DNA from: an archaeon
Lineage (GTDB): Archaea; Nanobdellota; Nanobdellia; SCGC-AAA011-G17; GW2011-AR18
DNA length: 32,000 bases
Assembly (NCBI GenBank): GCA_023245565.1
Contig: JAHFKB010000007.1
Span: forward strand, 2,379 to 34,378
Direction: 5' to 3'
The notes under the pieces were generated by a model. That model saw only the letters and a list, made by a program, of their open reading frames with translations. It was not told the DNA's origin and made no database searches. A program made the position numbers and the translations under genes. Each line of letters opens with the position of its first letter. The stretch's first letter is position 1. Positions 6,186 through 32,000 of the stretch are shown one piece after another.

Positions 6186-7313
6186 TTATATTTTCTTATT
6201 TAATAATTCTTTATATACTAATTCTAATTTTCTAGCTATTTTATCCCATGTGAAGTTTTTCACTTTTTTATATCCTTTTTCTTGTAATTCTAGTCTTAAT
6301 TTGTTATTATTTATTAATAAAGATAATTTTTCTTTTAAATCATTTAAATCATTGTCTTTGAATATTAGGCCTGCTTTTTCTACAACCCATGGAAGGCCGC
6401 CTTGGTTAGTTGTTATTACTGCACATTTTTGCGAAAATGCTTCTAATAATGTTATTCCAAAAGCATCATAATGACTAGGATGAATGAATATATCAGCAGC
6501 ATTAAAAGCTTCCATTTTTTCTTTATCTGTTATTTTTCCATAAATAAATTTTATATTTTTTATATTTCTACCTTCTGATTTTAAATTATTTAGTTCTGGA
6601 CCATTTCCCATTATTATAAATTTTACATTTGGAAAGTATTTACTAATTTTAATAATTTGGTCAACACCTTTACTTTTATGTAACCTTCCAAAATAAAGAA
6701 TTAATAATTCATTTAATTTAAAATTATATTTTTTTCTAAAATTATTTCCATTAAATTGTTTAAGTTGCTCCTTTGGTATTCCATTTGGAATTAATTCTAT
6801 TTTTTCTTTTCTAATTTTAAATTTATTTTCCAACCATTTTACTTCTGGTTTAGCAACAGCTATAACTCTATCATATTTATTTATTAAGAATTTTCCTAAT
6901 GTTTTATCAAATAGAATAATAAAGATATCTAACCATTTTTTTCTTAATCCTTTGTATTCTGGCCAGTGAGTAGTTATTAATGTTGGTTTTTTTGTTATTA
7001 AACAAGCTAAATTATGTGGGTGTCTATAAGCATGAATATGAATAATATCTGCATCTGATTTTTTTACTTCTTTGAAAAATCCTGGGAAAAAAGAACTAAG
7101 ATCTCCAATCTTAAACCAAGTACTTAATCTTTTTATTTTTATTTTTTTGTATATTTCATCTGTTTTTTCTAATTTCCCTTCTCTGCTTAAGTTTGAAGTT
7201 ATAACTTCTATTTTATGACCTAATTTTATTAGTTCTTCACTTAAGTATAAGACGTGTTTTTCCATTCCTCCTTCTACAGGATAAAAAAATGGAGTTATAA
7301 ATTTTATTTTCAT
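6186..7313 (-). CDS. GT4-family (GT-B, retaining) glycosyltransferase
   Basis: 375 aa. It has the N-terminal 'FYPVEGGMEKHV' glycine-rich start and the E-x7-E region 'HPSHYDAFGITLLEAFSQKCAVITTNQGGLPWVV' typical of Glycos_transf_1. Confidence 0.85.
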   Translation of the reverse strand: MKIKFITPFFYPVEGGMEKHVLYLSEELIKLGHKIEVITSNLSREGKLEKTDEIYKKIKIKRLSTWFKIGDLSSFFPGFFKEVKKSDADIIHIHAYRHPHNLACLITKKPTLITTHWPEYKGLRKKWLDIFIILFDKTLGKFLINKYDRVIAVAKPEVKWLENKFKIRKEKIELIPNGIPKEQLKQFNGNNFRKKYNFKLNELLILYFGRLHKSKGVDQIIKISKYFPNVKFIIMGNGPELNNLKSEGRNIKNIKFIYGKITDKEKMEAFNAADIFIHPSHYDAFGITLLEAFSQKCAVITTNQGGLPWVVEKAGLIFKDNDLNDLKEKLSLLINNNKLRLELQEKGYKKVKNFTWDKIARKLELVYKELLNKKI

Positions 7314-12398: not shown

Positions 12399-13087
12399 AT
12401 TAAACCCAATCTATATTTTATTATATCTATTATAAAATCAAATATTATTCTGGTTTTTACATTTGATTTTCCTTCATACCTATTTAAAACTTTTACTTCT
12501 ACTGATCCAATTTTAACTTTATTTTTTATGCATTTAATTAAAATTTCTGAATCTATAAACCATTCTTTTGATTTTAAATTTAATAGTTCATATGTTTCTT
12601 TTTTCATAACTTTTGGTTTTGCATTAATATCTTTTATATATTTAAAGAATAGGCTTGTAAATATTATATCAAATATATGAGAAACTATTTTTCTTTGGAT
12701 TGTGCCGTGTTTTTCTTTTCTTTGTCCTTTACATAATTCCACTTTAGGATGTTTTCTTAAATAGTTTAAACATGAAATAACATCTTCTGGTCTAATTTGG
12801 CCGTCACCATCAATATATCCAATGAATTTTCCTTTTGCAGTTCTTAATCCATTTATTATTCCCCAACCATATCCTTGATTTATTTTTACATAAACTCTTT
12901 TTAATCTCCTATTTTTTTTTATTAATTGTTTAATGTATTTATCTGTGTTATCTTTAGAGCCATTATTTACAATAATTATTTCATAATCAATTTTATTTTT
13001 CTGTAATTCTATTACTAAATCGTCAACAGTTTTTAATATTGTTTTACCTTCATTGTATATTGGCATTGTTATCGAAATTTCTGGCAT
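12395..13087 (-). CDS. GT2 glycosyltransferase, dolichyl-phosphate-sugar-synthase (DPM1)-like
   Basis: 230 aa. 'ITMPIYNEGKTI', 'VNNGSKDNT' and 'GYIDGDGQ' (DxD) give the GT-A fold signature. The short soluble size is typical of polyprenyl-phosphate hexose synthases. Confidence 0.8.
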   Translation of the reverse strand: MPEISITMPIYNEGKTILKTVDDLVIELQKNKIDYEIIIVNNGSKDNTDKYIKQLIKKNRRLKRVYVKINQGYGWGIINGLRTAKGKFIGYIDGDGQIRPEDVISCLNYLRKHPKVELCKGQRKEKHGTIQRKIVSHIFDIIFTSLFFKYIKDINAKPKVMKKETYELLNLKSKEWFIDSEILIKCIKNKVKIGSVEVKVLNRYEGKSNVKTRIIFDFIIDIIKYRLGLI

Positions 13088-13152
13088 ATTTTTATTAAAA
13101 AAATCCTCTATATAAAGCTTTCTTTATAATTTATAGATCTTAAATTAATTAA

Positions 13153-13182: not shown

Positions 13183-13917
13183 ATGACTCAAATGATTGTA
13201 CTGTGTGGTGGTAGAGGAGTAAGATTAAATCCCGCTACAGAAGTAATACCTAAGGCTTTAATACATGTTGCTGGAAAACCAATAATTCAACATATAGTTG
13301 AGATTTATTCTAAAAAAGGAATTAAGGATTATATTTTTTGTATAGGTTATAAAGGTGATAAAATTATAGATTTTTTTCATGCAAATAAAATTAATTTTAA
13401 TGGTTTAAATTTTGATTTTGTAGACTCTGGAGAAGAAGCTTCTATGTTAGAAAGGATTTATCAAGGATTTAATAAAATTGATGATGAAGCAATAATTACT
13501 TATGGAGATACTATTAATCCAAATCTAAATTTTGATAAATTATTAGAAGAGCATAGAACGAAAAATAGTGGCTTGACTTTAGTGAAAGCTAAAATTATGA
13601 ACCCCTTTGGAATATTAAATTATGATGATTCAGGAAGAGTTTTAACATTTAAAGAAAAACCAGTTTATGATTATTATATAGGGACTTTTGTATCTAATAA
13701 TCAGATTATGAAAAAGTATGTAACTAGTGATTTAAGACAAGCTAAAGATGCTATTGGATTAATTAAGTTTTTTGATGATGTAATAGCTCGTGGAAATGCT
13801 TATGTTCATTCTTATGAAGGCAAACAATTGACTTTTAATACAGAGTTAGAAAGAGGTTCTGTTGAAAGTGATATAATTGAGTTTTATACTTTAAATGAAG
13901 CAGAAAATGGAAGATAA
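13183..13917 (+). CDS. Sugar-1-phosphate nucleotidyltransferase (glucose-1-phosphate cytidylyltransferase-like)
   Basis: 244 aa. It has the N-terminal 'LCGGRGVRLNPATEVIPKALIHVAGKPII' (GxGxRL signature) and an 'IGYKGDKIIDFF' region resembling RfbF-type enzymes. Confidence 0.8.
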   Translation: MTQMIVLCGGRGVRLNPATEVIPKALIHVAGKPIIQHIVEIYSKKGIKDYIFCIGYKGDKIIDFFHANKINFNGLNFDFVDSGEEASMLERIYQGFNKIDDEAIITYGDTINPNLNFDKLLEEHRTKNSGLTLVKAKIMNPFGILNYDDSGRVLTFKEKPVYDYYIGTFVSNNQIMKKYVTSDLRQAKDAIGLIKFFDDVIARGNAYVHSYEGKQLTFNTELERGSVESDIIEFYTLNEAENGR

Positions 13918-14896
13918 AAGGATTTTAGTTACTGGTGGAAGTGGTTTTATACCTTCTCATTTAGTTAAAAGATTAATTTCTCAAGGAGCAGAGGTAGCTA
14001 TAATTACAAAATATAATAGTGTTTTTGATAATATAAGATTGGCAGATGTTTGGAATAAAGTTAAAATTATTGAAGCAGATATTAGGAATCAAGATTCTTT
14101 AAAACAAATAAAGAAATTTGAACCTCAGATTGTATACCATATGGCTGCTTATAATCACGTTGGAGATAGTTTTACTCATGTCTCAGAGAGTTTTGATGTA
14201 AATGCGAAAGGTACTGCAAATGTTATTGATGCATACGATGATTATGAAAAATTTATTTATATTTCAACTTCAGAGATTTATGGATTTCAAGAAAAGGTTC
14301 CATGGGCTGAAGATTTTAATCCTTCTCCTCTTTCTCCTTATTCTGTTGGAAAATATGCTGGAGAATTATATTGTAGAATGAAAATTAAAATGAATAATTC
14401 TCCCATTTCAATTATAAGACCATTTAATGCTTTTGGACCTTATCAAAGTTCTAGAGCAGTTATTCCTGAAATTATAAATAATTGTTTATTAGGAAAAGAT
14501 GTTCTAGCTACATGGGGAAAACAAACTAGAGATTTTAATTATGTAACTAATTTGATTGATGGACTTGTTCTTGCTGCTGAAAAAAAAAGCGCATTAGGCC
14601 AGATAATAAATTTAGGTAGTGATGAGGAGATTCCTATAAAAGATTTAATATTAAAAATACATCAACTTACAAATTCTAAATCCAAATTGAGAATGGGAGA
14701 TTTAGAGTATAGGCCAACCGAAATATGGAGAATGAGGGCTTCTAATCAAAAAGCAAAAGAATTACTTGGATGGACTCCTAAAATTAATTTTGAAAATGGA
14801 TTAATTAAGACTATTGAATGGTTTAAAAAATATAAAAATTTATTTGAAGATGATAATTCTTCGTTATTTAGGTTGAATAAAGATGCATACTCGTAA
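13895..14896 (+). CDS. Extended-SDR NAD-dependent sugar epimerase/dehydratase
   Basis: 333 aa. It has the Rossmann motif 'VTGGSGFIPSHL' and the catalytic 'YSVGKYAGE' (YxxxK). It overlaps the upstream gene by 23 nt. Confidence 0.85.
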   Translation: MKQKMEDKRILVTGGSGFIPSHLVKRLISQGAEVAIITKYNSVFDNIRLADVWNKVKIIEADIRNQDSLKQIKKFEPQIVYHMAAYNHVGDSFTHVSESFDVNAKGTANVIDAYDDYEKFIYISTSEIYGFQEKVPWAEDFNPSPLSPYSVGKYAGELYCRMKIKMNNSPISIIRPFNAFGPYQSSRAVIPEIINNCLLGKDVLATWGKQTRDFNYVTNLIDGLVLAAEKKSALGQIINLGSDEEIPIKDLILKIHQLTNSKSKLRMGDLEYRPTEIWRMRASNQKAKELLGWTPKINFENGLIKTIEWFKKYKNLFEDDNSSLFRLNKDAYS

Positions 14897-15734
14897 AGTT
14901 TTAATTACAGGTTCTAATGGATTTATAGGATTTGGATTTAGAGAATATTTATTGAGTAAAGGATTATCTATTATTGAATATAACGAAGACATAACAAAAC
15001 CAATAGTTTTAGATGAAAAAATTGATTTAATATATCATTTAGCTGCTAAAACTTCAGTTCAAGATTCATTAAGAGATCCTTTTCTTACAATGCAGACTAA
15101 TTTTTTAGGTACTTTCAATGTTTTGGAGTTTGCTAAGAAAAATGCTGCTAAAGTTATTTTTCCTTCTGCAGCAGGAGTTTATGAAAGGTCAAATTCTTTT
15201 TATGCTAATGAAACTGATTCTTTAAATCCTAAAAATCCATATGTAGAAAGTAAATATTTATCTGAGCAACTTTGTGATTATTATTCTAAAAATTATAATG
15301 TACAATCTATTGCTTTAAGAATATTTAATGTTTATGGTGGACGCCAAACTGGTGGTTTTTTAATACCTACTTTAATTAATGGTGCGTTAAAAGATACTAA
15401 AATAGAATTAAATTCTCCTCACTCTGTTAGAGATTATATTTATATAAAAGATGTTTATGAAGTTTTATTTAAAGCTTTAGATTATGTTCCTAAAACTGGT
15501 TTTGAAATATTTAATGTTGGCACTGGTGTTGGGATTAGTGTTGGAGAAATGGTTTCTTACATTTCTAATATTTTAGATAAACATCTAGAAGTTGTGTATA
15601 CTAATTTTAGAAAAAATGAAATTGATAAAATAATTGCAGATATAACTAAAATTAAAAATGCTTTTAATTGGAATCCTAGTTTTAATATTAATCAAGGATT
15701 AATAGCAACTATCAAAGAATTTAATAAATTCTAA
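14883..15734 (+). CDS. Extended-SDR NAD-dependent sugar epimerase/reductase
   Basis: 283 aa. It has 'ITGSNGFIGF' and 'YVESKYLSE' (YxxxK). It overlaps the upstream SDR gene by 14 nt. Confidence 0.8.
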   Translation: MHTRKVLITGSNGFIGFGFREYLLSKGLSIIEYNEDITKPIVLDEKIDLIYHLAAKTSVQDSLRDPFLTMQTNFLGTFNVLEFAKKNAAKVIFPSAAGVYERSNSFYANETDSLNPKNPYVESKYLSEQLCDYYSKNYNVQSIALRIFNVYGGRQTGGFLIPTLINGALKDTKIELNSPHSVRDYIYIKDVYEVLFKALDYVPKTGFEIFNVGTGVGISVGEMVSYISNILDKHLEVVYTNFRKNEIDKIIADITKIKNAFNWNPSFNINQGLIATIKEFNKF

Positions 15735-17203: not shown

Positions 17204-18205
17204 ATGAATTATTTTATATTAATATATGGATTAATTAGTTTTTTTATAGTCTTATTATTAACTAGTTGGTTGATTAAATACCTGAGAAAAATTGGTTTGA
17301 TTGTTAAAGACCAGAATAAGAAAGACAAACCATTAATTCCTATTTCTGGAGGATTAACTGTATTAGCAGGAATATTTGCTGGATTATTTTCTTTTATTTT
17401 TGTTAGAACTTTTTTTGGAGATGGCTCTAATTTTATAATAAATGATCATAACTTAATGTTATTATTTGCTGGAATGACTTCTTTGTTAATAATAACTTTA
17501 GTTGGATTTTTAGATGATATTTTAATTAATAAATCTCATGATAGTTCTATAGGATTAAGACAATGGCAAAAACCCTTGATAACTTTAACTGCTGCAATTC
17601 CATTAATGGTTGTTAGTGCTGGTACAACATTTATGCACTTTCCTATTTTAGGAAGGGTTGAATTTGGAATTCTTTATCCATTATTATTAGTTCCTTTAGG
17701 AGTTGTGGGTGCTTCTAATATGGTTAATATGTTAGAAGGTTATAATGGCTTAGCTGCTAGTATGGCAATAGTTTACATTGGTATGTTAGGATTTTATGCT
17801 TATTTTAATAATAGATATTTAGCAGCTTTAATTGCTATGGTTATTTTCTTTTCTTTATTAGCATTTTATTATTATAATATGTATCCTGCTAAAATATTTC
17901 CAGGTGATTCTTTAACTTATTTACTTGGAGCTAGTATTGCAGTTATTGCTGTTTTAGGTAATATAGAAAAAGCTGCGATTATTAGTTCAATTCCATTTTT
18001 TATTGAGTTTATATTAAAAGCTAGAAGTAAATTTAAGGCACATAGTTATGGATATGAAATTAATGGAAAAATAAAAGTAGATTATGAAAAAATATATTCT
18101 TTGCCACATATATTTGCTAGAAGTGGGAAATATACAGAAAAACAAATTGTTTTCTTTATGATATTAATACAGATTTTATTTAGCTCTTTAATATGGTTTA
18201 TTTAA
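17204..18205 (+). CDS. aglH: UDP-GlcNAc:dolichyl-phosphate GlcNAc-1-phosphate transferase (MraY/WecA/ALG7 superfamily, AglH-like)
   Basis: 333 aa, about 10 TM. 'NMVNMLEGYNGL' is the archaeal version of the NxxNxxDGxDGL motif. 'FLDDILI' is a DD motif after TM3, and 'FPGDSLTYLLG' is also present. Confidence 0.75.
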   Translation: MNYFILIYGLISFFIVLLLTSWLIKYLRKIGLIVKDQNKKDKPLIPISGGLTVLAGIFAGLFSFIFVRTFFGDGSNFIINDHNLMLLFAGMTSLLIITLVGFLDDILINKSHDSSIGLRQWQKPLITLTAAIPLMVVSAGTTFMHFPILGRVEFGILYPLLLVPLGVVGASNMVNMLEGYNGLAASMAIVYIGMLGFYAYFNNRYLAALIAMVIFFSLLAFYYYNMYPAKIFPGDSLTYLLGASIAVIAVLGNIEKAAIISSIPFFIEFILKARSKFKAHSYGYEINGKIKVDYEKIYSLPHIFARSGKYTEKQIVFFMILIQILFSSLIWFI

Positions 18206-19470
18206 AGAAATTTTTAAAATATACAAAAGAGGATAGTTTGATTAGAGATAGTTTTATACTTTTTATAGCAACAATGATAATGAATCTTGGTGCTTTTTTT
18301 TATCATTTTGTTATTGGAAGAATGTTAGGACCTAGTGATTATGGTGTTTTAGGTGTTGTTTTATCTTTATTTTATATTTTATTAGTTCCTTTGTATGTTA
18401 TACAAACTTCTTTATCTAAATTTGTTGCTGAATTCAAAGCTAAGAAAAATATTAAAAGTATAAGTACTCTTTTTTTTAAATCTATTAAAAAATTAATAGT
18501 TGTTGGTTTAATATTATTTGTTTTATTTTTAATTATTTCTTTTTTCCTTGCAGATTTCCTTAATATTCCTAAAAGTCTTCTTTGGATTGTAGCTTTAGCA
18601 GTACCATTTGTATTTTTATTGCCTATAGACAGAGGGATATTGCAGGGCTTACAGAATTTTAAAATTCTAGGTTTAAATTTTGTAATTGAATCTTTTACTA
18701 AATTTTTAATTGGAATTGGTTTAGTATTTTTAGGATTTGGAATTTATGGTGCTGTATTTGGAATTGTTGCTGCTTATATAACTGCTTTTGCTTGTGGTTT
18801 TTTCTCACTTAGAAAATATTTTAAAAATTATAAGAAAGATATTAATACTAAATCAATCTATAGTTATTCTTGGCCTGTTTTTATTGTTTTATTAACTTTA
18901 ACTTTATTTTATAGTTTAGATGTAATTTTAGTTAAACATTATTTTGATTCACTTAATTCTGGTTATTATGCTGCTTTTGCTATTCTAGGAAGAATTGCTT
19001 TTTTTGCTTCTTTTTCAATAGTCTTTGTTTTATTTCCTAAAGTAGTTGAAACACATGCTTTGGGTAAGTCTAATTTTAATCTTGTAAAAAAAGCTTTATT
19101 ACTTGTTACTATAGTTTCTGTTGGTTTAATATTATTTTATTTATTATTTCCTAAATTAGTTGTTTTAATCTTATTTGGAAAAGAATATTTATATATTACT
19201 AAATATTTAGCTCCATTTGCTTTAGTTATGAGTTTATTTTCTTATGTTTATATTTTATCATTTTATAATTTATCTATAAATAAGACTTCTTTTGTTTATT
19301 ATTTATTTATATTAGATATATTAGAGATTTTATTATTGGTTAAATTCCATAGTAATTTATGGCAAGTTATAATTGTTTTGTTAGTTTTGATATCAATAAC
19401 TTTAATATTTATGTTATTTTATACTTTTTATAAAAATGGTAAATTTATCAATAATAATTCCAGCTTATAA
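18193..19470 (+). CDS. MOP/Wzx-type oligosaccharide flippase (polysaccharide biosynthesis protein family)
   Basis: 425 aa with about 12 hydrophobic spans throughout and no soluble domain. It sits between aglH and a Dol-P-hexose synthase, overlapping them by 13 nt and 35 nt. Confidence 0.65.
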   Translation: MVYLKKFLKYTKEDSLIRDSFILFIATMIMNLGAFFYHFVIGRMLGPSDYGVLGVVLSLFYILLVPLYVIQTSLSKFVAEFKAKKNIKSISTLFFKSIKKLIVVGLILFVLFLIISFFLADFLNIPKSLLWIVALAVPFVFLLPIDRGILQGLQNFKILGLNFVIESFTKFLIGIGLVFLGFGIYGAVFGIVAAYITAFACGFFSLRKYFKNYKKDINTKSIYSYSWPVFIVLLTLTLFYSLDVILVKHYFDSLNSGYYAAFAILGRIAFFASFSIVFVLFPKVVETHALGKSNFNLVKKALLLVTIVSVGLILFYLLFPKLVVLILFGKEYLYITKYLAPFALVMSLFSYVYILSFYNLSINKTSFVYYLFILDILEILLLVKFHSNLWQVIIVLLVLISITLIFMLFYTFYKNGKFINNNSSL

Positions 19471-20981: not shown

Positions 20982-21863
20982 TTATTTTGTACTTTCTATT
21001 CTATTCCAAATTTTTGAGAAACTTTGTTTTCTTAATTTTATGTTTATAAAAATATCTAACCATAGATATAATCTTAATATTATTAAAATAAGAGTCCAAT
21101 ATATTTCTTTAATTGTTTTTGGATATTTTAATGCTCTTAAAACTTCTTTACTTTCTTTTATGAAAGAACGCATTTCATCTTTGCTTTTTATTATTTTTTT
21201 CATTTGTGAATAACCGCCAGCACTTCTTCTTTTTTGTTTAATCCAATCTCTTAATGTTGTTGGGAATTTTACATAGACTTTTGCTTCTGGAGTATATTTT
21301 ATTTTATAATTCTTTAAGTAAATTAAATTACTTATAACTGCATCATCAGCTAGAGAAACTTCTGGAATTTGTTTTATTATTTTATTTCTAATTGCCATTA
21401 AATATCCTGAACATATTAGATATTTATTTTCTTTATTTAATTTTAATCTTGTTTCATGTGCTCCTTCATCTGTTAATAAATGACTAAAATATCCTAACAT
21501 ATTATTTCTTGGATTTAAAGACATTGGACGTCCACTTACTGCTCCTATTTTTTTATCTTTAAATGGTTTTATTATTTCATTGATTGAATTATCTGATATA
21601 TACACATCACCATCTGTTAATATTAGGATATTTCCCTTTGCTTTTTTGAAAGCTATATTTAATGCTGAAGGTTTTCCTTTACCTTCATCTTGATAAATCT
21701 TTAATTTTTTATCCTTTATTTTCTTAGCTGCATTTAAAGTTTCTTTATCTGGAGCAAATACTAAAAGTTCATATTTAATATTTGTTTTTTGTTTTAGAAT
21801 TGATTCTATTGCTTTACCTATTGTTTTTGGTTCTTTAAATGCTGTTATAATTATTGAGATCAT
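20982..21863 (-). CDS. Membrane-anchored GT2 glycosyltransferase
   Basis: 293 aa. It has 'ISIIITAFKEPKTIGKAIESI', 'LTDGDVY' (DxD) and 'WIKQKRRSAGGY' (a QxxRW-like region), plus a C-terminal hydrophobic helix 'IYWTLILIILRLYLWLDIFI'. Confidence 0.8.
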   Translation of the reverse strand: MISIIITAFKEPKTIGKAIESILKQKTNIKYELLVFAPDKETLNAAKKIKDKKLKIYQDEGKGKPSALNIAFKKAKGNILILTDGDVYISDNSINEIIKPFKDKKIGAVSGRPMSLNPRNNMLGYFSHLLTDEGAHETRLKLNKENKYLICSGYLMAIRNKIIKQIPEVSLADDAVISNLIYLKNYKIKYTPEAKVYVKFPTTLRDWIKQKRRSAGGYSQMKKIIKSKDEMRSFIKESKEVLRALKYPKTIKEIYWTLILIILRLYLWLDIFINIKLRKQSFSKIWNRIESTK

Positions 21864-22294
21864 TTTTCTATTAAGTATTCACTAATCCATCCTTTGTATT
21901 TATTTTTTATCTCTTTAGGAAGTTCTTTATAAGATTTTATGAATTTTCTGCAATTTGGACTTTTACAATTGCATTCCACTTCATGTTTGTGTCCTATTGT
22001 TGTTGAATAATCTATTAATATTTCTTCACCTAGTTTAATATTTTTCATTGCTGTAATTTTGTTTAGATTTTTTATTCCACAATTTGGATCACATGAATGA
22101 TTTAAAAATTCTCCTGGATTATTTTTATCTGGATTTATAAATTTATTTTTCCCAATTTGTAAACTTTTATAATTAGCTTTTGACCAATTTATTATATTCC
22201 CTGAAAAAGTAAAAACTAATTTGTTTTTTTTAAATTTCTTATTTGCAAAAATACCACTACCTTCTTTTTCTGAATTTTTAATTATCCAATTCAT
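21860..22294 (-). CDS. SET-domain protein (putative protein-lysine methyltransferase) with Cys-rich post-SET
   Basis: 144 aa. 'GEFLNHSCDPNCG' (NHSCxPN) and 'GEEILIDYS' (ELxxDY-like) are the SET core, and 'CNCKSPNCRKF' is a post-SET CxCxxxxC. An ATGA overlap links it to the downstream GT2 (21860..21863), and it overlaps the upstream GT4 by 17 nt. Confidence 0.85.
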   Translation of the reverse strand: MNWIIKNSEKEGSGIFANKKFKKNKLVFTFSGNIINWSKANYKSLQIGKNKFINPDKNNPGEFLNHSCDPNCGIKNLNKITAMKNIKLGEEILIDYSTTIGHKHEVECNCKSPNCRKFIKSYKELPKEIKNKYKGWISEYLIEK

Positions 22295-24881: not shown

Positions 24882-25988
24882 CTATACAGCAAAATTAATT
24901 GTCCAGTGATGCTGAGTGACAATAGAATAGTAATGGAATAATACAGTCAACCATAGAATGATTATTATTAATAGCAATATTTTTCCAATAATAGTCTCGT
25001 GATTTTTACCTATAAATAAAACATATAATGGCAATAAAAATGATACATATTTGAAAGAATATATGGGGAAAAATAATGTTAATATTATTAATAATAAAAT
25101 TGGTAAAATAAAATTTGTAAGAATGAAAATAGTTTTTCTTCTGTCTTCCTTCCAAAATCTCATTATCCCTATTAAAAATACTAAGAACACTATTGGTGCA
25201 GTTATGATTAAGTATGGTGCAATTTTTGGTGTTGAAGAAATATCTAACATTGTAGAAAATTTATATATTGGATAGAGTGCAGTTTGAAGTGTAACTTTAC
25301 TGCCTGTTACAAGATTGCCTTGAGGGAGTAAATAATTATATTGACTTATAAAATAGGGAATTAATGGAAGTAATAAAATTAAAGCGATTGTTCCAAAAAT
25401 GAAAAAACTTTTTATTATTTCTTTATTCTTTCTATTTTCTATTAAGAACCATATTAATTGTGTTAAAACAAAAGTACCAGAAAGGTAATGCAGATATATT
25501 GAAATCACGTAAATTATAAATAAATATATTAGGTACTTTTTTTCTTTTGTTTCTCTTAATTTAATAAATATAATCAGTGATAGTATGTAGACTAACATTA
25601 GTAATATGTAAACTCTGATATGTTGAGAGAATAATACATGCATTGGATTTATACTTAACAAAAAAGCAGAAACCAAAGCTGTTTTCTTATTTGTTAATTT
25701 TGAGACAAGAATATAAAATAATATTATGTTTAATAACCCTATTATTACCATAAATGTTTTTAATACTAATATGGACTTTGTTAAAGCTAATAAAATTCCT
25801 AATAAAAAAAAGAATAAAGGGGGATTGCCAAATTCACTCATATATGTAGGCCCTTTTTCTATAATTACTCTTGCATTATTTATGCTAGCACTTTCATCTG
25901 TGCCATAAGCTTTATCGTATAGGTGGATTGATCTGAGGAGTATTGTGATAATTAATATTATCATTAAAATTTTAATTTCTTTCTTCAT
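24882..25988 (-). CDS. GT-C-like membrane glycosyltransferase (short ArnT/PMT_2-like)
   Basis: 368 aa, polytopic. 'YDKAYGTDESASINNARV' follows the first TM helix, placing a D-E motif in the same position as in the other two ArnT-like paralogues. No large soluble domain. Confidence 0.55.
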   Translation of the reverse strand: MKKEIKILMIILIITILLRSIHLYDKAYGTDESASINNARVIIEKGPTYMSEFGNPPLFFFLLGILLALTKSILVLKTFMVIIGLLNIILFYILVSKLTNKKTALVSAFLLSINPMHVLFSQHIRVYILLMLVYILSLIIFIKLRETKEKKYLIYLFIIYVISIYLHYLSGTFVLTQLIWFLIENRKNKEIIKSFFIFGTIALILLLPLIPYFISQYNYLLPQGNLVTGSKVTLQTALYPIYKFSTMLDISSTPKIAPYLIITAPIVFLVFLIGIMRFWKEDRRKTIFILTNFILPILLLIILTLFFPIYSFKYVSFLLPLYVLFIGKNHETIIGKILLLIIIILWLTVLFHYYSIVTQHHWTINFAV

Positions 25989-26112
25989 TATATTTATCGC
26001 AGGCCAATATCGATTAATAAATTTTATCTTTTTATATTAATTTTAATGATTTTTTCTATAATTTATTGTGTTATTTTAAATATCTTGAATAGAGCTCAAA
26101 TTCACAAAAGTC

Positions 26113-26120
26113 TTATATAC
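26113..26120 (+). promoter_or_regulatory. Putative TATA box for the radical SAM gene
   Basis: 'ttatatac' is centred about 25 nt upstream of the ATG at 26142. This supports 26142 rather than 26046 as the start. Confidence 0.3.
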
Positions 26121-26141
26121 CATTTTGATTATTGTAATCTT

Positions 26142-27584
26142 ATGAAGATATGTTTTGTAATGCCGCCGATGGCTAGCGGTTACTGGAAAAAATTAGGTAA
26201 AAAAGTTGGTCCTCAGTCTGAGCCTTTAAGTTTATGTTATATAGCTTCATATTTAAATTCTAAAGGTTATAAGGCAGATATAATAGATTGTATAGCAGAA
26301 GATTTAACAGAAGAAGAAATAGAACAAAGGTTAAGAGAGGGAAAATATGATATTGTTGGTGTAACTATGCTTACTTTAATGTATACTCAGGCATTAAATG
26401 TGTGTAAAATTGTTAAGAAGATTAATCCAAAAACTTATGTAGTAATAGGTGGTCCACACCCAACAATTGCAGCTTCTGCGACATTGCAAAATGAAAAGGA
26501 TATAGATTTTGCAGTTATTGGTGAAGCTGAAATAACATTTTATGAACTTTTAAAAGCATTAGATGGGGAAATAAAACTTAGTGCTGTAGATGGTTTAGCT
26601 TATAAAACAAATGATGGCAAAGTGATGTTAAATAATCAAAGAAAGCTGATTGACGATTTAGATATATTACCCATGCCAGATAGAAGTCTATTAAAAATGG
26701 AACTTTATAGGCCTTCTGTTTCTTATTACAAAAGATTACCAGCATACATAATATTAACAACTCGTGGTTGTCCTTATAGGTGCACTTTCTGCTCTAAAGT
26801 CTTTGATAAGAAATATAGACAGAATTCTGTTGAATATACAATAAAAGAAATGAAGTATTTAATGGAAGAATTTGGTGCAAAAGAAATAGTTTTTAGAGAT
26901 GATACTTTTACAATGAAATTTCCTTGGGTTACTGAATTTTGTAATAAACTTATTGAAGAAGGCCTTAATAAAAAAATTAGATGGAGTTGTATGACTCGTG
27001 TAAATCTAGTTAACTTAGAAATGCTTAAACTAATGAAAAAAGCTGGATGTTGGGGAATTCATTTTGGAGTTGAATCTGGAAATCAAAGACTATTAAATTT
27101 AATAAAGAAAGACGTTACTGTACAACAAATTAAAGATGCTTTTAAGTGGTGTAAAGAAGCAGGAGTAGAGACTAGGGCCTTTATGATGCTTGGGCTTCCT
27201 ACAGAAACTAAAGAGGAAAGTCTTGAAACCATAAGATTTGCAAAAGAACTTGATCCTGATTGGGCTCAGTTTACTATTACTACTCCTTATCCAGGAACAG
27301 AACTTTATAAACAAGCTAATGAACATGGTGAACTTAAATCTATTGACTGGAATAACTATCAAACATGGGCAGGATTTTCTGAAAATGATTTGGTCTGGAC
27401 CACAAATGGTAGAGAATCTTCAGAGCTTAAAGCGTTGCAGAGAAAGGCATTAAGGGAATTTTATTTCAGACCTAAATTTATATTAAAGAAATTAGTTCAT
27501 ATAGATAATCTGCCAATATTTAGAAAATATGTTTTAGGAGCATGGGCACTTCTAACAACTGGAGAAGGCAGAGCTATGGAATAA
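26142..27584 (+). CDS. Cobalamin-binding-domain (class B-type, COG1032-like) radical SAM enzyme
   Basis: The N-terminal Rossmann-like B12-binding module has 'MKICFVMPP...', 'DIVGVTMLT' and 'VVIGGPHPT'. The radical SAM cluster motif is 'TTRGCPYRCTFCS' (CxxxCxxC at 26769..26792), and 'GVESGNQRLL' is also present. The ORF track starts at 26046, but the first 32 codons are hydrophobic/AT-rich and contain the candidate TATA box. Confidence 0.85.
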   Translation: MKICFVMPPMASGYWKKLGKKVGPQSEPLSLCYIASYLNSKGYKADIIDCIAEDLTEEEIEQRLREGKYDIVGVTMLTLMYTQALNVCKIVKKINPKTYVVIGGPHPTIAASATLQNEKDIDFAVIGEAEITFYELLKALDGEIKLSAVDGLAYKTNDGKVMLNNQRKLIDDLDILPMPDRSLLKMELYRPSVSYYKRLPAYIILTTRGCPYRCTFCSKVFDKKYRQNSVEYTIKEMKYLMEEFGAKEIVFRDDTFTMKFPWVTEFCNKLIEEGLNKKIRWSCMTRVNLVNLEMLKLMKKAGCWGIHFGVESGNQRLLNLIKKDVTVQQIKDAFKWCKEAGVETRAFMMLGLPTETKEESLETIRFAKELDPDWAQFTITTPYPGTELYKQANEHGELKSIDWNNYQTWAGFSENDLVWTTNGRESSELKALQRKALREFYFRPKFILKKLVHIDNLPIFRKYVLGAWALLTTGEGRAME

Positions 27585-27601: not shown

Positions 27602-29164
27602 TTATATTATTTCATATATAAAAGCTTGATTTTTGAAATTCTTAACTTCCTTTAATGGAAGACTTTTATATATCTGACATATATATTGATCTTTTGTAAT
27701 CTCTTCTTTATGTATAATTAAGATTTTTGATTTTAATATAGCTTTAAAATATTCTTCATTACATCTTGATTCTTGCAATATTACAATTGGGATTTTTTCT
27801 CCTTTATAAAATACTAAAGTATTTAGTGAACTAGTCATTACGGGTGGGTTGTTTCTTGAATTTAATTCATTTAATATTGAATCTGGTATTTCTTTATCAA
27901 AATTATTTTCGTAAAATCTTTTTCCCAAACCTAAGTTACTATATTCCCAAGTGCTATATGGAAAATTTGGAATTACTTGAACTATATTTATTATTAAAAT
28001 TAAAATGAAAACGTATTTCAGTACTTTGTATTTACTTATTAATTTTGATATTATTAATCCTGCTAATAAGAAAACTGAAGCGTAAAAAGTTATATTGTAC
28101 ATATGTCCCGAGCCTAATCGTGTTAATCCTATGCCAAAAAAACTTACAGCTAAAAATATTATCAAAACTGATTTTATATCTTTATTTTTTGTAAAATTAA
28201 GGAGGTTTACCAGTCCGCTTTCTTTATCAGATTTATTTTTATTTATTAAATAATAAATGAAACTTATCACTATTAAGATAAATGTTAATGAAAATATGTA
28301 AGAATTTCTTGTTAATGCAAAAACTATCATTGATGGAAAAGTAAATCCAAGTAATTGGAATGGTGATTCTGCTTGTAGGTGTTGCTGAGCAAATGCTTTT
28401 GCTTCTGAAGGGTATGTATAATAAAATACAAATAAAAATGAGGCAATTATTAAACCTGTTACTATTAGATTTTCTTTTAATTTATTTTTTTCCCTATTAA
28501 TGAAGAATTGAGAAATAATTAATGTAGGTATAATAAATAATGGATCAAAATTTCTTGATCCTATTGCAAATGTCATTACTAAGATTGTCATTCCTAAGTA
28601 TAACCATTTTTTATCTTCTGATTTTTCAGACAGATACTTTATGTAAAAAAATAAAGTTCCCAAAACTAAAGATATTGAGATAATTTTCATTAATATTTCA
28701 TGTCTGCTGTAAGCGATCATGTCTGGAGATATTGCCATAATGGCTGCACCCCATAATGCTGCTTCTTTATTAAATAATTTCTTCATAATTAAGTAAATGA
28801 ATAAAATTGCTAAAGATCCTAAAATTGCATTCATTATTCTTATTGCTACATAATTTTTAGTTACTGCCTCATATCCAATAAAAGCCCAAGTAAACATATT
28901 TGGACCTAAAGCATTAATTGGTGCATAATTTGCTGAAATAAAATTTACTGGAAGAGCAACTAACCATTTTCCTAAACCTGGGTGTTCTTGAAAGTACATT
29001 ATTCCAGATTTTAGATCTTGGCTGTGAATTTTTATTGCGCTAACAAAAGAATATTGTTCATCAGACCATATATATTCACTTGGTAAACCATAGAATCTTA
29101 GGAATATGCCTAATAATATTAATAAAATTAACATATAATTAACTATATTTTCTTTTTTAATCAT
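27602..29164 (-). CDS. GT-C fold membrane glycosyltransferase, ArnT/PMT-like
   Basis: 520 aa, polytopic. 'PSEYIWSDEQYSFVSAIKI' after TM1 is the D-E first-loop motif. Soluble C-terminal domain of about 120 aa. Confidence 0.7.
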   Translation of the reverse strand: MIKKENIVNYMLILLILLGIFLRFYGLPSEYIWSDEQYSFVSAIKIHSQDLKSGIMYFQEHPGLGKWLVALPVNFISANYAPINALGPNMFTWAFIGYEAVTKNYVAIRIMNAILGSLAILFIYLIMKKLFNKEAALWGAAIMAISPDMIAYSRHEILMKIISISLVLGTLFFYIKYLSEKSEDKKWLYLGMTILVMTFAIGSRNFDPLFIIPTLIISQFFINREKNKLKENLIVTGLIIASFLFVFYYTYPSEAKAFAQQHLQAESPFQLLGFTFPSMIVFALTRNSYIFSLTFILIVISFIYYLINKNKSDKESGLVNLLNFTKNKDIKSVLIIFLAVSFFGIGLTRLGSGHMYNITFYASVFLLAGLIISKLISKYKVLKYVFILILIINIVQVIPNFPYSTWEYSNLGLGKRFYENNFDKEIPDSILNELNSRNNPPVMTSSLNTLVFYKGEKIPIVILQESRCNEEYFKAILKSKILIIHKEEITKDQYICQIYKSLPLKEVKNFKNQAFIYEII

Positions 29165-29216: not shown

Positions 29217-30284
29217 ATGGTTAGCAAAGTTTATGTTTTAAAAACTAAACCAGAGAATGTTATTAAAGATTATTCAAAATTATTAGAAATCTCTAATTAT
29301 AAAAAATATATTTCTAAAGATATTAATACAATTTTGAAACTTAATTTATCTTGGAGTAAATATTTTCCTTCATGCAGCACAGAACCATGGCAACTCGAAG
29401 GTGTAGTAAATAAACTTAAAAAAGATGGATATAAAAAATTAATTCCTGTTGAAAATAGAACTGTAGTTACTGATGTCTGGAAAGGTGCTGCAGGAAATAA
29501 GTGGCTTCCAATATTAAAAAAATATAATTTAAAGTATAATCCGTTAACTGAAACTGAATGGGTAAGTTATAAACCTAAACATGATATGCTTGCGATGGAT
29601 AAAATTTTTAGTGAAGGGCATAAAATTCCTAAAATATTTATTGGATCTAATGTTATACATTTGCCTTCTGTTAAAACACATGGGCATACATCGATGACTG
29701 GTGCTATGAAAAATGCATTTGGTGGTTTAATTACAGAAAAAAGACATCATTGTCATAAAATGATACATGAAGTTTTAGTTGATTTATTGCAAATTCAAAA
29801 AGAGATTCATAAAGGTATATTTGCAGTTATGGATGGAACTGTTTGCGGTGATGGTAATGGTCCAAGAACAATGATACCAAAAATAAAAAATTATATATTA
29901 GCTAGTTCTGATCAAGTTGCTATTGATGCCATATCTGCTAAAATGATGGGCTTTGACCCTATGAAAATTAAATTTATTAAAATTGCTCATGATAAAGGAT
30001 TAGGCAATGGAGATATTGATCAAATAGATATTGTTGGAGAAAATATAACAAATGTAAATTTCGGGTTTAGTACTGGTAAAAGTCCTGTTATATTTTTTGA
30101 TCAATTATTTAGAAAAGGAAGCTTTAATTTTTTAGAACCTTTATTATTTCATACTGGGCTGTTTAATTTATGTATTTTTGGAAGTGAATTTTATCATGAT
30201 TTCTTGTGGTACAATACTATAGGTAAATATAGAATAAATAAATTTAAACAGACTGACTGGGGTAAATTATTTGATAAGTACTAA
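29217..30284 (+). CDS. DUF362-family protein
   Basis: 355 aa. 'LPSVKTHGHTSMTGAMKNAFGGL' and 'MDGTVCGDGNGP' match my recollection of the conserved K-T-H...G-x-x-K-N-x-F-G and DG...G.GP blocks of DUF362 (COG2006). No ferredoxin Cys cluster is fused. Confidence 0.65.
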   Translation: MVSKVYVLKTKPENVIKDYSKLLEISNYKKYISKDINTILKLNLSWSKYFPSCSTEPWQLEGVVNKLKKDGYKKLIPVENRTVVTDVWKGAAGNKWLPILKKYNLKYNPLTETEWVSYKPKHDMLAMDKIFSEGHKIPKIFIGSNVIHLPSVKTHGHTSMTGAMKNAFGGLITEKRHHCHKMIHEVLVDLLQIQKEIHKGIFAVMDGTVCGDGNGPRTMIPKIKNYILASSDQVAIDAISAKMMGFDPMKIKFIKIAHDKGLGNGDIDQIDIVGENITNVNFGFSTGKSPVIFFDQLFRKGSFNFLEPLLFHTGLFNLCIFGSEFYHDFLWYNTIGKYRINKFKQTDWGKLFDKY

Positions 30285-31143
30285 AGTTGAAATACAATAG
30301 CATAAATGTTACTAATAACCATAATAAAAGTCCAATTAATAATTCTTTATCTTTGTATAAAAGGTTTGGCTTTCTTGCAATTTTAGATTCACTATAAATT
30401 AAGTATACATATCTGAATATTACATAAATTGCAAATGGTATTGTTAATAATAACTTTTTGTGTTCACCTAAGAAAGCATATAATGAATATGAAATCAATA
30501 ATAATGTGGTGGATATTATAATTAAAATACCATTTATTTCTGGAGTATAATTTTTTAGTACTTGTTTATGATTTACTGCATTTTTTCCAAGCAACCTTAA
30601 GTCTCCGTGTCTTTTACCTACAGCTAAAAATAAAGCTAAGAAAAATGGACAAAGAATTAACCACGGTGATAATGGTTTATTTATAATGAAAGTTCCTGAT
30701 ACAGATCTTATTACAAAATTTATAGAGATAATTATTATATCCAAGAATAATATATGTTTTAGTTTGAAAGAATATAATAAAGTTAACACTAATAAAAATA
30801 TTACAGATAGTAAAAATATTTTTGATAAATTATATGCTATAAATAAAGATATTATGGTTATTATTAATGCTATTATAATTGCTTCGTAGATTTTAATTGA
30901 CCCATAGGCTATAGGTCTTGTTTTTTTCTCTTGATGTTCTTTATCTTTTTTTCTGTCTAAAATATCATTTATTATGTAATTTGTAGAAGATATCAGACAA
31001 AGACTTATCAATCCCAAGGTTGTTGCAATGAACAATTCTTTATTGAATAATGAATTTGAAAATATTAAAGCTAGATATATAACTAAATTTTTATACCATT
31101 GATGTATGCGCATTAATTTTATTATTTCTATGAGTTTTTTCAC
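30244..31143 (-). CDS. UbiA-superfamily polyprenyl-phosphate phosphoribosyltransferase-like enzyme (DPPR-synthase / Rv3806c-like)
   Basis: 299 aa, about 8-9 TM. 'MRIHQWYKNLVIYLALIF' resembles the RxxQWxKN N-terminus of this subfamily. 'NDILDRKKDKEHQEKKTRPIAYG' follows NDxxDxxxDxxHxxKxxRPIAxG, and a second Asp-containing loop is present. The track start is GTG (31141..31143, a GTGA overlap with the upstream gene). An alternative ATG lies at 31113. Confidence 0.75.
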   Translation of the reverse strand: MKKLIEIIKLMRIHQWYKNLVIYLALIFSNSLFNKELFIATTLGLISLCLISSTNYIINDILDRKKDKEHQEKKTRPIAYGSIKIYEAIIIALIITIISLFIAYNLSKIFLLSVIFLLVLTLLYSFKLKHILFLDIIIISINFVIRSVSGTFIINKPLSPWLILCPFFLALFLAVGKRHGDLRLLGKNAVNHKQVLKNYTPEINGILIIISTTLLLISYSLYAFLGEHKKLLLTIPFAIYVIFRYVYLIYSESKIARKPNLLYKDKELLIGLLLWLLVTFMLLYFNFSTYQIIYPSQSV

Positions 31144-32000
31144 AATTTTTTCACCATATTTGCCACTATTCTTCCTGATTCAAGAGCCACATTCATATTT
31201 CTAATTTTTGGAAATGTTACTTGTATTCCTGAATTAAAAAAATAATGTATTGGTGTTCTATATGTTGGTGCATAACTTAAATAATCTTTATCATAAATTG
31301 GTTCTGCATATTTCTCTCTAAAAACATAACACCAGTTTAACTGCATATTTGGGAAGTATTTCTTTAATATTTCTAAATACATTTTTTTAATTTGTTCGTC
31401 TGGAAGTCTGATATCTTCTTCACTACCACCATATCTTACACACCAGGTTACTTTACTTTTATATTTATCTATTAACATTGAATGCTGATATATCACATGG
31501 ATTCTTTCTTTTATTAGATTTATCCAATAATTCTTTTTATCCAAGAAATTTTTAGTTCCAAAACATAATCCTACTACTGGAACATATCTTAATTTTTTTA
31601 TTTTTTCTATATAAGTCTCTGGAAAATTTTTTGTAAATTTTAATAACTCTGGTACTGGTATTGTGTTGATCAATATATCGAATTTTTCTTCTTTTGATTT
31701 TTTATTATTTATTTTATATTTAATTTTTTTATTTTTAATGTCTAATTCAATAATGTCTGTTCTTATGTTTATTCTTCCTTTTCTTTTTAAAATATCTTTT
31801 TCTAAACCATTAATCATTCCTTGTAGGCCTTTAGTTGGGAATGTAAAATCATCATAACCTTCTTTTTCAAATAACCTATTAGCAAATTGTTTTGCTGAAA
31901 TTTTCTCTAATTCAATGTTAAATTTATTTCTTGCATATAATTGATACCATATTTTTTCTGTTACTTCTTTTCCTGCATATTTTAAAAGCCAGGTTTTTGC
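31140..32000 (-). CDS. FAD/NAD(P)-dependent oxidoreductase of the amine-oxidase / protoporphyrinogen-oxidase / UDP-galactopyranose-mutase-like fold (5' end beyond window)
   Basis: My hand translation shows the frame stays open from 31817 up to the window edge ('AKTWLLKYAGKEVTEKIWYQLYARNKFNIELEKISAKQFANRLFEKEGYDDFTFPTKGLQGMINGLEKD...'). The 'FPTKGLQGMINGL' and 'VFREKYAEPIYDKDY' blocks are typical of this flavoenzyme superfamily. The N-terminal dinucleotide-binding motif would lie outside the window. Confidence 0.65.
   Translation of the reverse strand, partial: AKTWLLKYAGKEVTEKIWYQLYARNKFNIELEKISAKQFANRLFEKEGYDDFTFPTKGLQGMINGLEKDILKRKGRINIRTDIIELDIKNKKIKYKINNKKSKEEKFDILINTIPVPELLKFTKNFPETYIEKIKKLRYVPVVGLCFGTKNFLDKKNYWINLIKERIHVIYQHSMLIDKYKSKVTWCVRYGGSEEDIRLPDEQIKKMYLEILKKYFPNMQLNWCYVFREKYAEPIYDKDYLSYAPTYRTPIHYFFNSGIQVTFPKIRNMNVALESGRIVANMVKKL

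Follow-up and report, generated by a model that had tools for sequence, protein, structure and literature searches.

The window analyzed here, a stretch of 32,000 nucleotides from the archaeal contig JAHFKB010000007.1, represents a glycosylation island from a DPANN (Woesearchaeota-like) archaeon, and the genes at its far end appear to form the core of an archaeal lipid-linked pentofuranose donor system. Three genes are central to this reading: one for a UbiA-superfamily protein that is probably a polyprenyl(dolichyl)-phosphate 5-phosphoribosyltransferase (PPPRS/DPPRS type), one for an FAD-dependent oxidoreductase of the NCBIfam PRK07233 family (the flavoenzyme), and one for a DUF362 protein (DUF362b). 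Judging from sequence and gene neighborhood, we assign a probability of about 0.6 to the view that this set is the counterpart of the mycobacterial and the bacterial three-component pathways. In mycobacteria, decaprenyl-phospho-arabinose is made and used by the UbiA-type DPPRS Rv3806c, the PAP2 phosphatase Rv3807c, DprE1/DprE2, the GtrA-like protein Rv3789, and the Emb/Aft glycosyltransferases of the C fold (GT-C).

The gene for the UbiA-superfamily protein (30244..31143, minus strand) begins with GTG and encodes 299 amino acids that match the Pfam UbiA family with 91 bits. Both motifs from which its subfamily was proposed in a preliminary description of this DNA, HQWYKNL and NDILDRKKDKEHQEKKTRPIAYG, are present in this open reading frame (ORF). 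A database protein (P0001) is 100% identical to it, with a public gene call that begins at Met11, and its nearest relatives with names are labeled 'Candidatus Woesearchaeota archaeon'. The placement of the protein among UbiA subfamilies rests on scores of curated hidden Markov models (HMMs), on its match in the PDB, and on a comparison of residues. In the NCBIfam scan, it reached 234.4 bits on NF008977, 'decaprenyl-phosphate phosphoribosyltransferase' (cutoff 234), and 158-159 bits on NF008978 and the HAD-fused NF006088, while the best family outside the DPPRS/PPPRS group scored 61 bits. Among all PDB sequences, the best match was Mycobacterium tuberculosis Rv3806c (8j8j, E=1.4e-32, 116 bits), and the archaeal prenyltransferase AfUbiA (4tq3) was found with E=1.5e-4 and 24 bits. 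The protein shares 28.5% identity with Rv3806c over 267 columns, a level comparable to the 31% between the mycobacterial enzyme and the biochemically proven Citrobacter ORF15 (PMC11127046). Since the NCBI pipeline already names some relatives from Woesearchaeota and Nanoarchaeota 'decaprenyl-phosphate phosphoribosyltransferase', the homology of archaeal relatives to DPPRS is on record.

The residues that hold Mg2+, pyrophosphate, ribose, and the ribose 5-phosphate have been defined in Rv3806c by cryo-EM and mutagenesis (PMC10994848), and 11 of 13 catalytic or substrate-contact residues (R22, K28, Y70, N73, D74, D77, D81, K87, R90, Y138, and K143) are identical in the window protein. The Mg2+/pyrophosphate site (N73-D74-x-x-D77, D81, R22, K87, R90, K143, and Y138) is represented by N59, D60, D63, D67, R12, K73, R76, K129, and Y124, all of which show complete invariance or conservation of 90% or more in 40 archaeal relatives. 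The contacts to the ribose 5-phosphate (K28, Y70, and Y157) lack conservation in UbiA enzymes that transfer prenyl groups; here they correspond to K18, Y56, and F143, and Phe in place of Y157 is also found in some mycobacteria (PMC10994848). On the basis of the HMM scores, the PDB match, and the conserved contacts, the family assignment is established at the sequence level and the activity is inferred from it; the protein is thus very probably of the phosphoribosyltransferase type, and not a digeranylgeranylglyceryl phosphate (DGGGP) synthase or quinone prenyltransferase. The proposed grouping with Rv3806c, as opposed to DGGGP synthase, UbiA, and MenA, is therefore upheld.

The flavoenzyme gene (31140..32000, minus strand) is translationally coupled to the UbiA gene. 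Positions 31140..31143 read tcac on the plus strand, that is, GTGA on the minus strand, so that the GTG start of the UbiA gene (31143..31141) overlaps the TGA stop of the flavoenzyme gene (31142..31140). This four-nucleotide overlap, which had been pointed out before and is borne out by the strand sequence, is retained in three relatives (L002, L003, and L005). The frame is open from 31140 to the end of the window, which it runs off as had been described, leaving the C-terminal 286 codons of a protein of approximately 427 amino acids. The fragment matches positions 151-440 of the 443 of the Pfam Amino_oxidase profile (6.6e-13) and scores 131 bits on NF005560. Its homologues are 423-430 amino acids long and up to 81% identical, and those with a source name come from DPANN-type archaea; given these lengths and the start of the profile match at position 151, roughly the first 140 residues, among them the GxGxxG motif that binds FAD, would lie outside the window. 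On NF005560 (cutoff 252), a model that carries only the name 'hypothetical protein', the full-length homologue P0123, which shares 79% identity with the fragment, reaches 256 bits, and P0129, also full length, 263 bits. The models next in line are HpnE (about 74 bits) and PRK07208. By fold, the flavoenzyme is best described as a generic flavoprotein of the phytoene desaturase/protoporphyrinogen oxidase/monoamine oxidase type, and the fold leaves its substrate unsettled.

The association of the flavoenzyme with the UbiA gene is recurrent. It was found in 11 UbiA-anchored loci, and in a reverse look-up from four divergent flavoenzyme homologues a UbiA gene lay within 1.2 kb in all four cases, which substantiates the earlier view of the two as real partners. 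The archaeal flavoenzyme always has one of two further partners, often with overlapping stop and start codons: SDR310, a 310-residue extended short-chain dehydrogenase/reductase (SDR) (L006, L008, L009, L013, L045, L076, L086, L168, and L169), or DUF362a, a 347-residue DUF362 paralogue (L002, L003, L005, L018, L027, and L085). As the window is of the DUF362a type, synteny predicts a DUF362a gene just beyond its end, within the remaining 2.4 kb of the contig. Two families of polytopic membrane proteins also occur beside the flavoenzyme/SDR310 pair in some relatives. One has 577-590 amino acids and a conserved 'YYGGDLYAHHG' loop after the first transmembrane segment (L008 4897..6636, L086 12767..14539, and L168 10573..12306), and the other has about 445 amino acids and at least eight transmembrane segments (L045 5314..6651 and L169 4699..6024); both are without a Pfam or NCBIfam match and look like unclassified GT-C transferases.

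The third gene, which went unmentioned in the preliminary description, encodes DUF362b (29217..30284, plus strand), a protein of 355 amino acids with a LarA-like fold and a Pfam DUF362 score of 100.6 bits. It is convergent with the UbiA gene, and the 3′ ends of the two genes overlap by 41 nucleotides (30244..30284), a length that is identical in L001-L005. Such an overlap leaves no space for a terminator between the genes and suggests constrained co-evolution of both ends. DUF362 is the commonest archaeal partner of the UbiA gene: DUF362b adjoins it in 22 of approximately 62 archaeal loci, compared with none of 80 control loci. Sequence identity to the window protein is 68-86% in the 120 best clusters, 56-69% in loci of Methanobacterium, Methanolobus, Micrarchaeota, and Aenigmarchaeota, and 44-45% in Asgard archaea, and this conservation exceeds that of the UbiA protein itself. 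Many His, Lys, and Cys residues are invariant in the family, for example in KTHGH and RHHCHK, and the C-terminus is an aromatic-rich helical tail. We know of no DUF362 member whose function has been established. The resemblance to LarA (lactate racemase), whose superfamily comprises nickel-pincer-nucleotide racemases and epimerases, has two sources. DUF362 and the LarA N-terminal domain belong to the same Pfam clan, CL0471 (PMC11770544), and the only significant Foldseek matches of the AlphaFold model of DUF362b (pLDDT 90) were LarA-type racemases/epimerases, which made up the top seven (E-values 1e-4 to 1e-3, TM-score about 0.4). At the sequence level, on the other hand, DUF362b could not be connected to a solved structure: no match was obtained in sequence or profile searches of the PDB, nor with Lar_N in a relaxed Pfam scan, so that in our own searches the link to LarA comes from the fold search only. 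Fold and linkage make DUF362b a candidate hydride-transfer or epimerase-type enzyme acting on a lipid-linked pentose.

With regard to the distribution of the system, one genome per GTDB species was scanned; at least 568 species contain a relative of the UbiA protein, and the best 80 loci were taken. These come from DPANN archaea and Altiarchaeota (Woesearchaeota, Nanoarchaeota, Pacearchaeota, Aenigmarchaeota, Micrarchaeota, Parvarchaeota, and Altiarchaeota), from other archaea (Methanobacterium, Methanolobus bombayensis, Thermoprotei, Thor- and Hermodarchaeota), and from Bacteria (Paenibacillus, Chloroflexota, and others). Some taxonomic labels or bins look doubtful: many TPA_asm metagenome-assembled genomes named 'uncultured Methanosarcinales archaeon' (L006, L007, and L012-L015, among others) match Woesearchaeota/Nanoarchaeota in proteins and synteny, and a contig of a 'Nomurabacteria bacterium' (L030) has the Woesearchaeota-type order UbiA>PAP2 ... 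HTH<.

For a census of 84 UbiA-anchored loci, ORFs were called, neighbors within 4 kb of the UbiA gene were clustered, and the largest clusters were annotated. DUF362 was present in 23 loci, GT2 glycosyltransferases in 21, extended SDR epimerases in 18, PMT_2-type GT-C enzymes in 13, the flavoenzyme and a PHP phosphoesterase in 11 each, ArnE/ArnF-like proteins with four transmembrane segments and the TIGR00374 'flippase-like' LPG_synthase_TM (MprF-type) protein in nine each, PAP2 in seven, and DUF212, a divergent PAP2 of Paenibacillus, in six; calcineurin-type metallophosphoesterases were seen in L018, L027, L072, and L083. GtrA is another recurrent neighbor and, like the ArnE/F-like and MprF-type proteins, a candidate flippase. 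The presence of four unrelated phosphoesterase folds directly beside the UbiA gene across lineages argues for a product that carries a removable phosphate, as decaprenylphosphoryl-5-phosphoribose does. L169, with the order SDR>flavoenzyme>SDR<UbiA>PAP2<GtrA<, has nearly the mycobacterial parts list; Paenibacillus loci read UbiA>ArnE/F-like>DUF212>large polytopic proteins; the locus of Methanolobus bombayensis DSM 7082 (L048) has the order GT2-DUF362b-GT-C-UbiA-flippase-like; and many archaeal loci, of type V, read UbiA>PHP>flippase-like>DUF362, with no GT-C within 4 kb. As a control, 80 DPANN-like loci (610 kb) anchored on an unrelated GT-C contained no UbiA of this type, flavoenzyme, or DUF362. 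An Aenigmarchaeota glycosylation island (L085) also carries an RVT_1 reverse-transcriptase gene (12040..13110) a few kb from its UbiA/DUF362/flavoenzyme cassette.

Two GT-C genes of the window belong to this conserved neighborhood. The product of the first (27602..29164, minus strand; Pfam PMT_2 55 bits, PMT 42 bits) is an orthologue of the GT-C cluster that adjoins the UbiA gene in 13 loci, with 465 bits on the model of that cluster, and is a candidate user of the lipid-linked pentose. The second and shorter one (24882..25988, minus strand; Pfam PMT_2 48.7 bits) scores 202 bits on the same model and occupies the position of the second GT-C of L002 and L005.

The flavoenzyme family also extends to bacteria. 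A tblastn search against plasmids returned seven proteobacterial records, and all four that were inspected (L170-L173; Agrobacterium, Burkholderia, Rhizobium, and Rhodobacteraceae plasmids/chromids) share one six-gene operon in the order HAD-PPPRS, DprE1-like, DprE2-like, SDR310, PRK07233 flavoenzyme, and GtrA, which adjoins genes for large hypothetical membrane proteins. In the Agrobacterium copy, the HAD-PPPRS scores 532 bits on NF006088, the DprE1-like protein 373 bits on NF053785, the DprE2-like SDR 161 bits, and the flavoenzyme 510 bits on NF005560. Its SDR310 is 41% identical (E=4e-80) to that of the DPANN-type locus L086, where the SDR310 start overlaps the flavoenzyme stop. The operon appears to be a D-arabinofuranose-type system that includes two additional enzymes. 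A relationship is possible to the D-arabinofuranose cluster PsPA7_6245-6251 of Pseudomonas (para)aeruginosa PA7, in which the 'hypothetical' genes 6250 and 6251 can be lost without visible change in pilin glycosylation. The flavoenzyme family thus accompanies PPPRS genes as a conserved accessory in both domains.

Because the flavoenzyme coexists with DprE1 and DprE2 in Proteobacteria, it would be an additional tailoring enzyme there and not their substitute, and the earlier proposal that it replaces DprE1 needs revision: it is probably not a simple DprE1 replacement. In approximately 89 UbiA-anchored loci, a model built from four DprE1-like proteins gave no match and a DprE2 model gave two weak matches only. 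The flavoenzyme of the window has the amine-oxidase fold and DprE1 the vanillyl-alcohol oxidase (VAO) fold, so the window does not encode the DprE1/DprE2 two-component pair. A redox or epimerase role directed at a sugar is a tentative assignment for the flavoenzyme, to which we give slightly short of an even chance.

A pathway may be outlined from these data. Based on homology to characterized enzymes, the UbiA-type enzyme would transfer 5-phosphoribose from phosphoribosyl pyrophosphate (PRPP) to polyprenyl or dolichyl phosphate at the cytoplasmic face. The following steps are suggested by conserved neighborhoods. The 5-phosphate would be removed by a phosphoesterase; in relatives, the enzymes predicted for this role are PAP2, DUF212, PHP, and metallophosphoesterase proteins. 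The lipid-linked ribose would then be tailored in the cytoplasm by the flavoenzyme together with the predicted DUF362a (SDR310 in other lineages), and DUF362b may act on it as well; the likeliest chemistry of these helpers would be oxidation and reduction of a ring hydroxyl, i.e., epimerization. The product would finally be flipped, and the GT-C enzymes encoded at 27602..29164 and 24882..25988 would add the pentofuranose to surface glycans or glycoproteins. In its widest form, the proposal is that DPANN archaea, methanogens, and Asgard archaea make dolichyl- or polyprenyl-phospho-pentofuranose from PRPP, that it is tailored by two kinds of enzyme with no earlier connection to sugar chemistry, namely LarA-fold DUF362 proteins, as a novel sort of epimerase or redox enzyme for a lipid-linked sugar, and the PRK07233 flavoenzyme (with DUF362a or SDR310), that ribofuranose (Ribf), arabinofuranose (Araf), xylofuranose (Xylf), or the never-observed lyxofuranose (Lyxf) is thereby placed on archaeal surfaces, and that the same flavoenzyme is an extra module of bacterial D-arabinofuranose-type operons. 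We regard the proposal at this breadth as doubtful.

Other explanations of the same genes differ in what they make of the flavoenzyme or of the UbiA product. The UbiA-type enzyme might make lipid-phospho-ribose while the flavoenzyme saturates or desaturates an isoprene unit of the polyprenyl/dolichyl carrier, in the manner of phytoene desaturase, HpnE, or CrtI. DPANN archaea are thought to scavenge lipids, which makes remodeling of the carrier plausible, and the structural comparison points the same way: the top Foldseek match of the AlphaFold model of P0123 (pLDDT 95) was rice phytoene desaturase (5mog, TM-score 0.81, 18% identity), followed by protoporphyrinogen oxidases, two uncharacterized archaeal structural-genomics proteins, and amine oxidases, and HpnE was the second-best NCBIfam model of the family (73-88 bits). 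However, the scores on all HMMs of such enzymes are far below cutoff and the flavoenzyme is only 13-19% identical to those lipid enzymes. The fact that it is always coupled to DUF362a or an extended SDR of the sugar type also argues against the idea, as do the proteobacterial PPPRS operons, where it lies between sugar epimerase genes and GtrA in hosts that use undecaprenyl phosphate. A phytoene desaturase-type enzyme had been named in advance as a finding that would count against glycan chemistry; the nearest structure is indeed of this kind, but only at the 18% identity given above, and the genomic context points to sugar chemistry; we hold carrier remodeling to be unlikely. A flavoenzyme that acts as a non-redox ring mutase on a lipid- or nucleotide-linked sugar, like UDP-galactopyranose mutase (UGM), is very improbable. 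The two share the broad fold of flavoproteins with two dinucleotide-binding domains, with weak N-terminal sequence matches, but the UGM model TIGR00031 gave 24-31 bits on flavoenzyme homologues (cutoff 304) and covered the FAD-binding N-terminus only; no UGM was among the top 50 structural matches of the P0123 model, and ring contraction would be unneeded as PRPP already supplies a furanose. A UGM assignment was rejected for its HMM scores, and the UGM-like mutase of the preliminary description was abandoned.

With regard to the UbiA product, a lipid-phospho-pentose could be an end product, such as a glycolipid or anchor, with the nearby GT-C enzymes serving glycosylation from dolichol-phosphate-hexoses. 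This fits the many archaeal type V loci in which a GT-C is missing within 4 kb, as well as the generic PMT_2 character of the GT-C enzymes of the window, whose best PDB match is a weak one to a Dol-P-Man protein mannosyltransferase (E=0.003). On the other hand, the GT-C genes directly beside UbiA in 13 loci come from several lineages and include orthologues of the one in the window, and all characterized PPPRS systems use their product as a GT-C donor; the end-product view therefore appears improbable. There is scarcely any likelihood that the UbiA-type protein is a conventional lipid or quinone prenyltransferase (DGGGP synthase, UbiA/MenA, or heme O synthase) with a geranylgeranyl reductase-like flavoenzyme at its side. 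Membership of the UbiA superfamily speaks for it, and some sources call relatives '4-hydroxybenzoate polyprenyltransferase'. Against the 234 bits of the DPPRS model, however, the UbiA model gave 48 bits, that of heme O synthase 38 bits, and the DGGGP synthase models 27-30 bits, scores for which a DGGGP synthase or quinone prenyltransferase identity was rejected; among solved structures, Rv3806c leads by 28 orders of magnitude in its E-value, the contacts to the 5-phosphate of PRPP are conserved, and the neighbors are glycosylation genes, phosphatases, and flippases and not lipid or quinone genes.

The reading of a pentofuranose donor system also has to accommodate several observations that weigh against it. 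The score of the UbiA-type protein on NF008977 is barely at the cutoff, and the archaeal members of the family are known from sequence alone. Gln135 of Rv3806c, which contacts the ribose O3, is replaced by Thr121; in most relatives this stretch reads 'TQxY', where Gln follows the site by one residue, and in the window protein it reads 'TLLY'. The Q135A mutant of Rv3806c retains about 30% activity (PMC10994848). All nearest structures of the flavoenzyme (phytoene desaturase and protoporphyrinogen oxidase), together with its second HMM, HpnE, represent enzymes of lipophilic non-sugar substrates, and its coexistence with DprE1 and DprE2 in Proteobacteria means that its reaction there is not the known 2′-oxidation. 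The adjoining GT-C enzymes, being generic PMT_2 proteins, could use Dol-P-Man or Dol-P-Glc. Models built from the neighbors in relatives detected no phosphatase (PAP2, DUF212, PHP, or metallophosphoesterase) and no small flippase (ArnE/F-like, GtrA, or LPG_synthase_TM) in the 32-kb window; the PAP2 phosphatase that the preliminary description suggested looking for is thus missing from it, the phosphatase may be encoded elsewhere in the genome, and the nearest flippase candidate is a Wzx/MOP-type protein with a weak MatE match (18193..19470), 11 kb from the UbiA gene. Finally, literature searches turned up no Ribf or Araf in archaeal glycans.

The window as a whole has a G + C content of 24.8%, and its remaining genes are largely those of glycosylation, with family matches for the window at E-values of 1e-26 to 1e-69, far beyond chance. 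Between the two UbiA-linked GT-C genes lies one for a B12-binding radical SAM enzyme (class B, HpnJ-like; 26046..27584, plus strand) that matches Pfam B12-binding and Radical_SAM and scores 239 bits on the NCBIfam HpnJ model (cutoff 578). The family is also found near the UbiA gene in at least six other loci, namely L002 (3697..5127), L010, L041, L045, L047, and the end of L085; it may methylate or rearrange a sugar or lipid, and its membership in the system is uncertain. A GT4 gene (6186..7313) and a GT-C gene (4671..6161) directly precede the gene for ribose-phosphate diphosphokinase, or PRPP synthetase (prs; 3806..4669, minus strand; TIGR01251 227 bits, cutoff 113). A further GT-C is the STT3/AglB protein encoded at 8248..10881, which brings the GT-C enzymes to four, in keeping with the three to four counted before, and adjacency of GT-C is seen in relatives too. 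A nucleotidyltransferase gene is followed by two extended SDR genes (13183..15734, with the SDRs at 13895..15734), and several GT2 and GT4 genes and methyltransferases are also present.

Two elements that had been counted among the parts of the system were rejected as such. The prs gene does stand within a glycosyltransferase operon as described, but its adjacency to GT-C is retained only in the two closest relatives (L088 and L089); prs was absent from the 84 UbiA loci except for one bacterial locus and from the other GT-C loci among the 80 examined. Its presence indicates that the organism can make PRPP, and nothing more. The SDR pair, considered as an analogue of DprE2, exists as well; it lies approximately 15 kb from the UbiA gene beside the nucleotidyltransferase gene, is not among the matches listed to the SDR310 model, and belongs to a nucleotide-sugar module. 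The dolichyl-phosphate-ribose/arabinose-type donor system of the preliminary description thus stands with regard to the UbiA type, the flavoenzyme as partner, and the adjacency of GT-C, but not with regard to the prs link, the SDR pair, or a DprE1- or UGM-like role of the flavoenzyme.

Some other genes of the window are unusual in themselves. A 682-residue protein (38..2086, plus strand) has a GATase_7 and Asn_synthase module fused to Diphthami_syn_2 (226 bits), which is unusual for an enzyme of the diphthine-ammonia ligase step. A SET-domain protein of 144 residues (21860..22294, minus strand; 49.5 bits) is encoded between glycosyltransferase genes. Directly 3′ of the AglB/STT3 gene, a very hydrophobic protein of 492 residues without a family match (10920..12398, plus strand) is possibly a further unclassified GT-C, or else a protein that partners the oligosaccharyltransferase in the membrane.

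To our knowledge, lipid-linked pentofuranose donors are known only from the cell walls of Corynebacteriales and, since 2024, from the decoration of bacterial O-antigens and pilins. If demonstrated in archaea, they would constitute a new donor class for archaeal glycobiology, and carriers of the UbiA-type gene include cultured Methanolobus and Paenibacillus species as well as Asgard metagenome-assembled genomes. The pathway would also provide the first functional context for two large orphan families, DUF362 (PF04015) and PRK07233; DUF362b alone has more than 8000 close relatives. DPANN cells are host-dependent, and their surface glycans likely mediate attachment. In addition, the flavoenzyme/SDR module is unexplained in the DprE1/DprE2 operons of plant-associated and opportunistic Proteobacteria, and one solution would inform both domains.

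In comparison with the decaprenyl-phospho-arabinose pathway of M. tuberculosis, the first enzyme belongs to the same family with conserved catalytic and PRPP-binding residues, and the proposed order of steps is the same: lipid-phospho-ribose 5-phosphate would be made from PRPP, dephosphorylated, tailored in the cytoplasm, flipped, and used by a GT-C. Relatives such as L169 add PAP2 and GtrA beside the UbiA gene. In contrast, the archaeal loci have the amine-oxidase-fold flavoenzyme and DUF362 (or SDR310 elsewhere) where mycobacteria have the VAO-fold DprE1, and in an archaeal host the carrier would presumably be a dolichyl or other archaeal polyprenyl phosphate. The proteobacterial operons share with DPANN homologues the flavoenzyme family (510 bits in Agrobacterium, 256-263 bits in DPANN) and SDR310; however, their DprE1/DprE2 homologues and fused phosphatase are absent from the window-type archaeal cassette, in which DUF362 proteins take the place that SDR310 has in other DPANN loci.

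The bacterial three-component pentofuranose systems consist of PPPRS, a flippase, and a GT-C of family GT136, with optional epimerases (Kelly, Duong, Nothof, Lowary & Whitfield, PNAS 2024, PMC11127046); archaea are not mentioned in that paper or its supplement. The arrangement in Paenibacillus fits these systems. The window resembles them in having a UbiA-family PPPRS beside GT-C and optional tailoring enzymes, with phosphatases and small flippases in relatives, and differs in that no phosphoribose 5-phosphatase, HAD-type or other, is fused or adjacent to the PPPRS, no MATE flippase adjoins it, and its GT-C enzymes, encoded 1 kb from the UbiA gene and syntenic in relatives, are of the PMT_2 type. 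The PRK07233 flavoenzyme and DUF362 are likewise not among the described components. In the literature, no paper was found that describes or tests a lipid-linked pentose donor pathway in archaea, in agreement with the preliminary description, or that links DUF362 or PRK07233 to such a pathway. The core logic of the pathway is therefore known from bacteria, and what is new lies in the domain of life, the accessory enzymes, and the lipid that probably serves as carrier.

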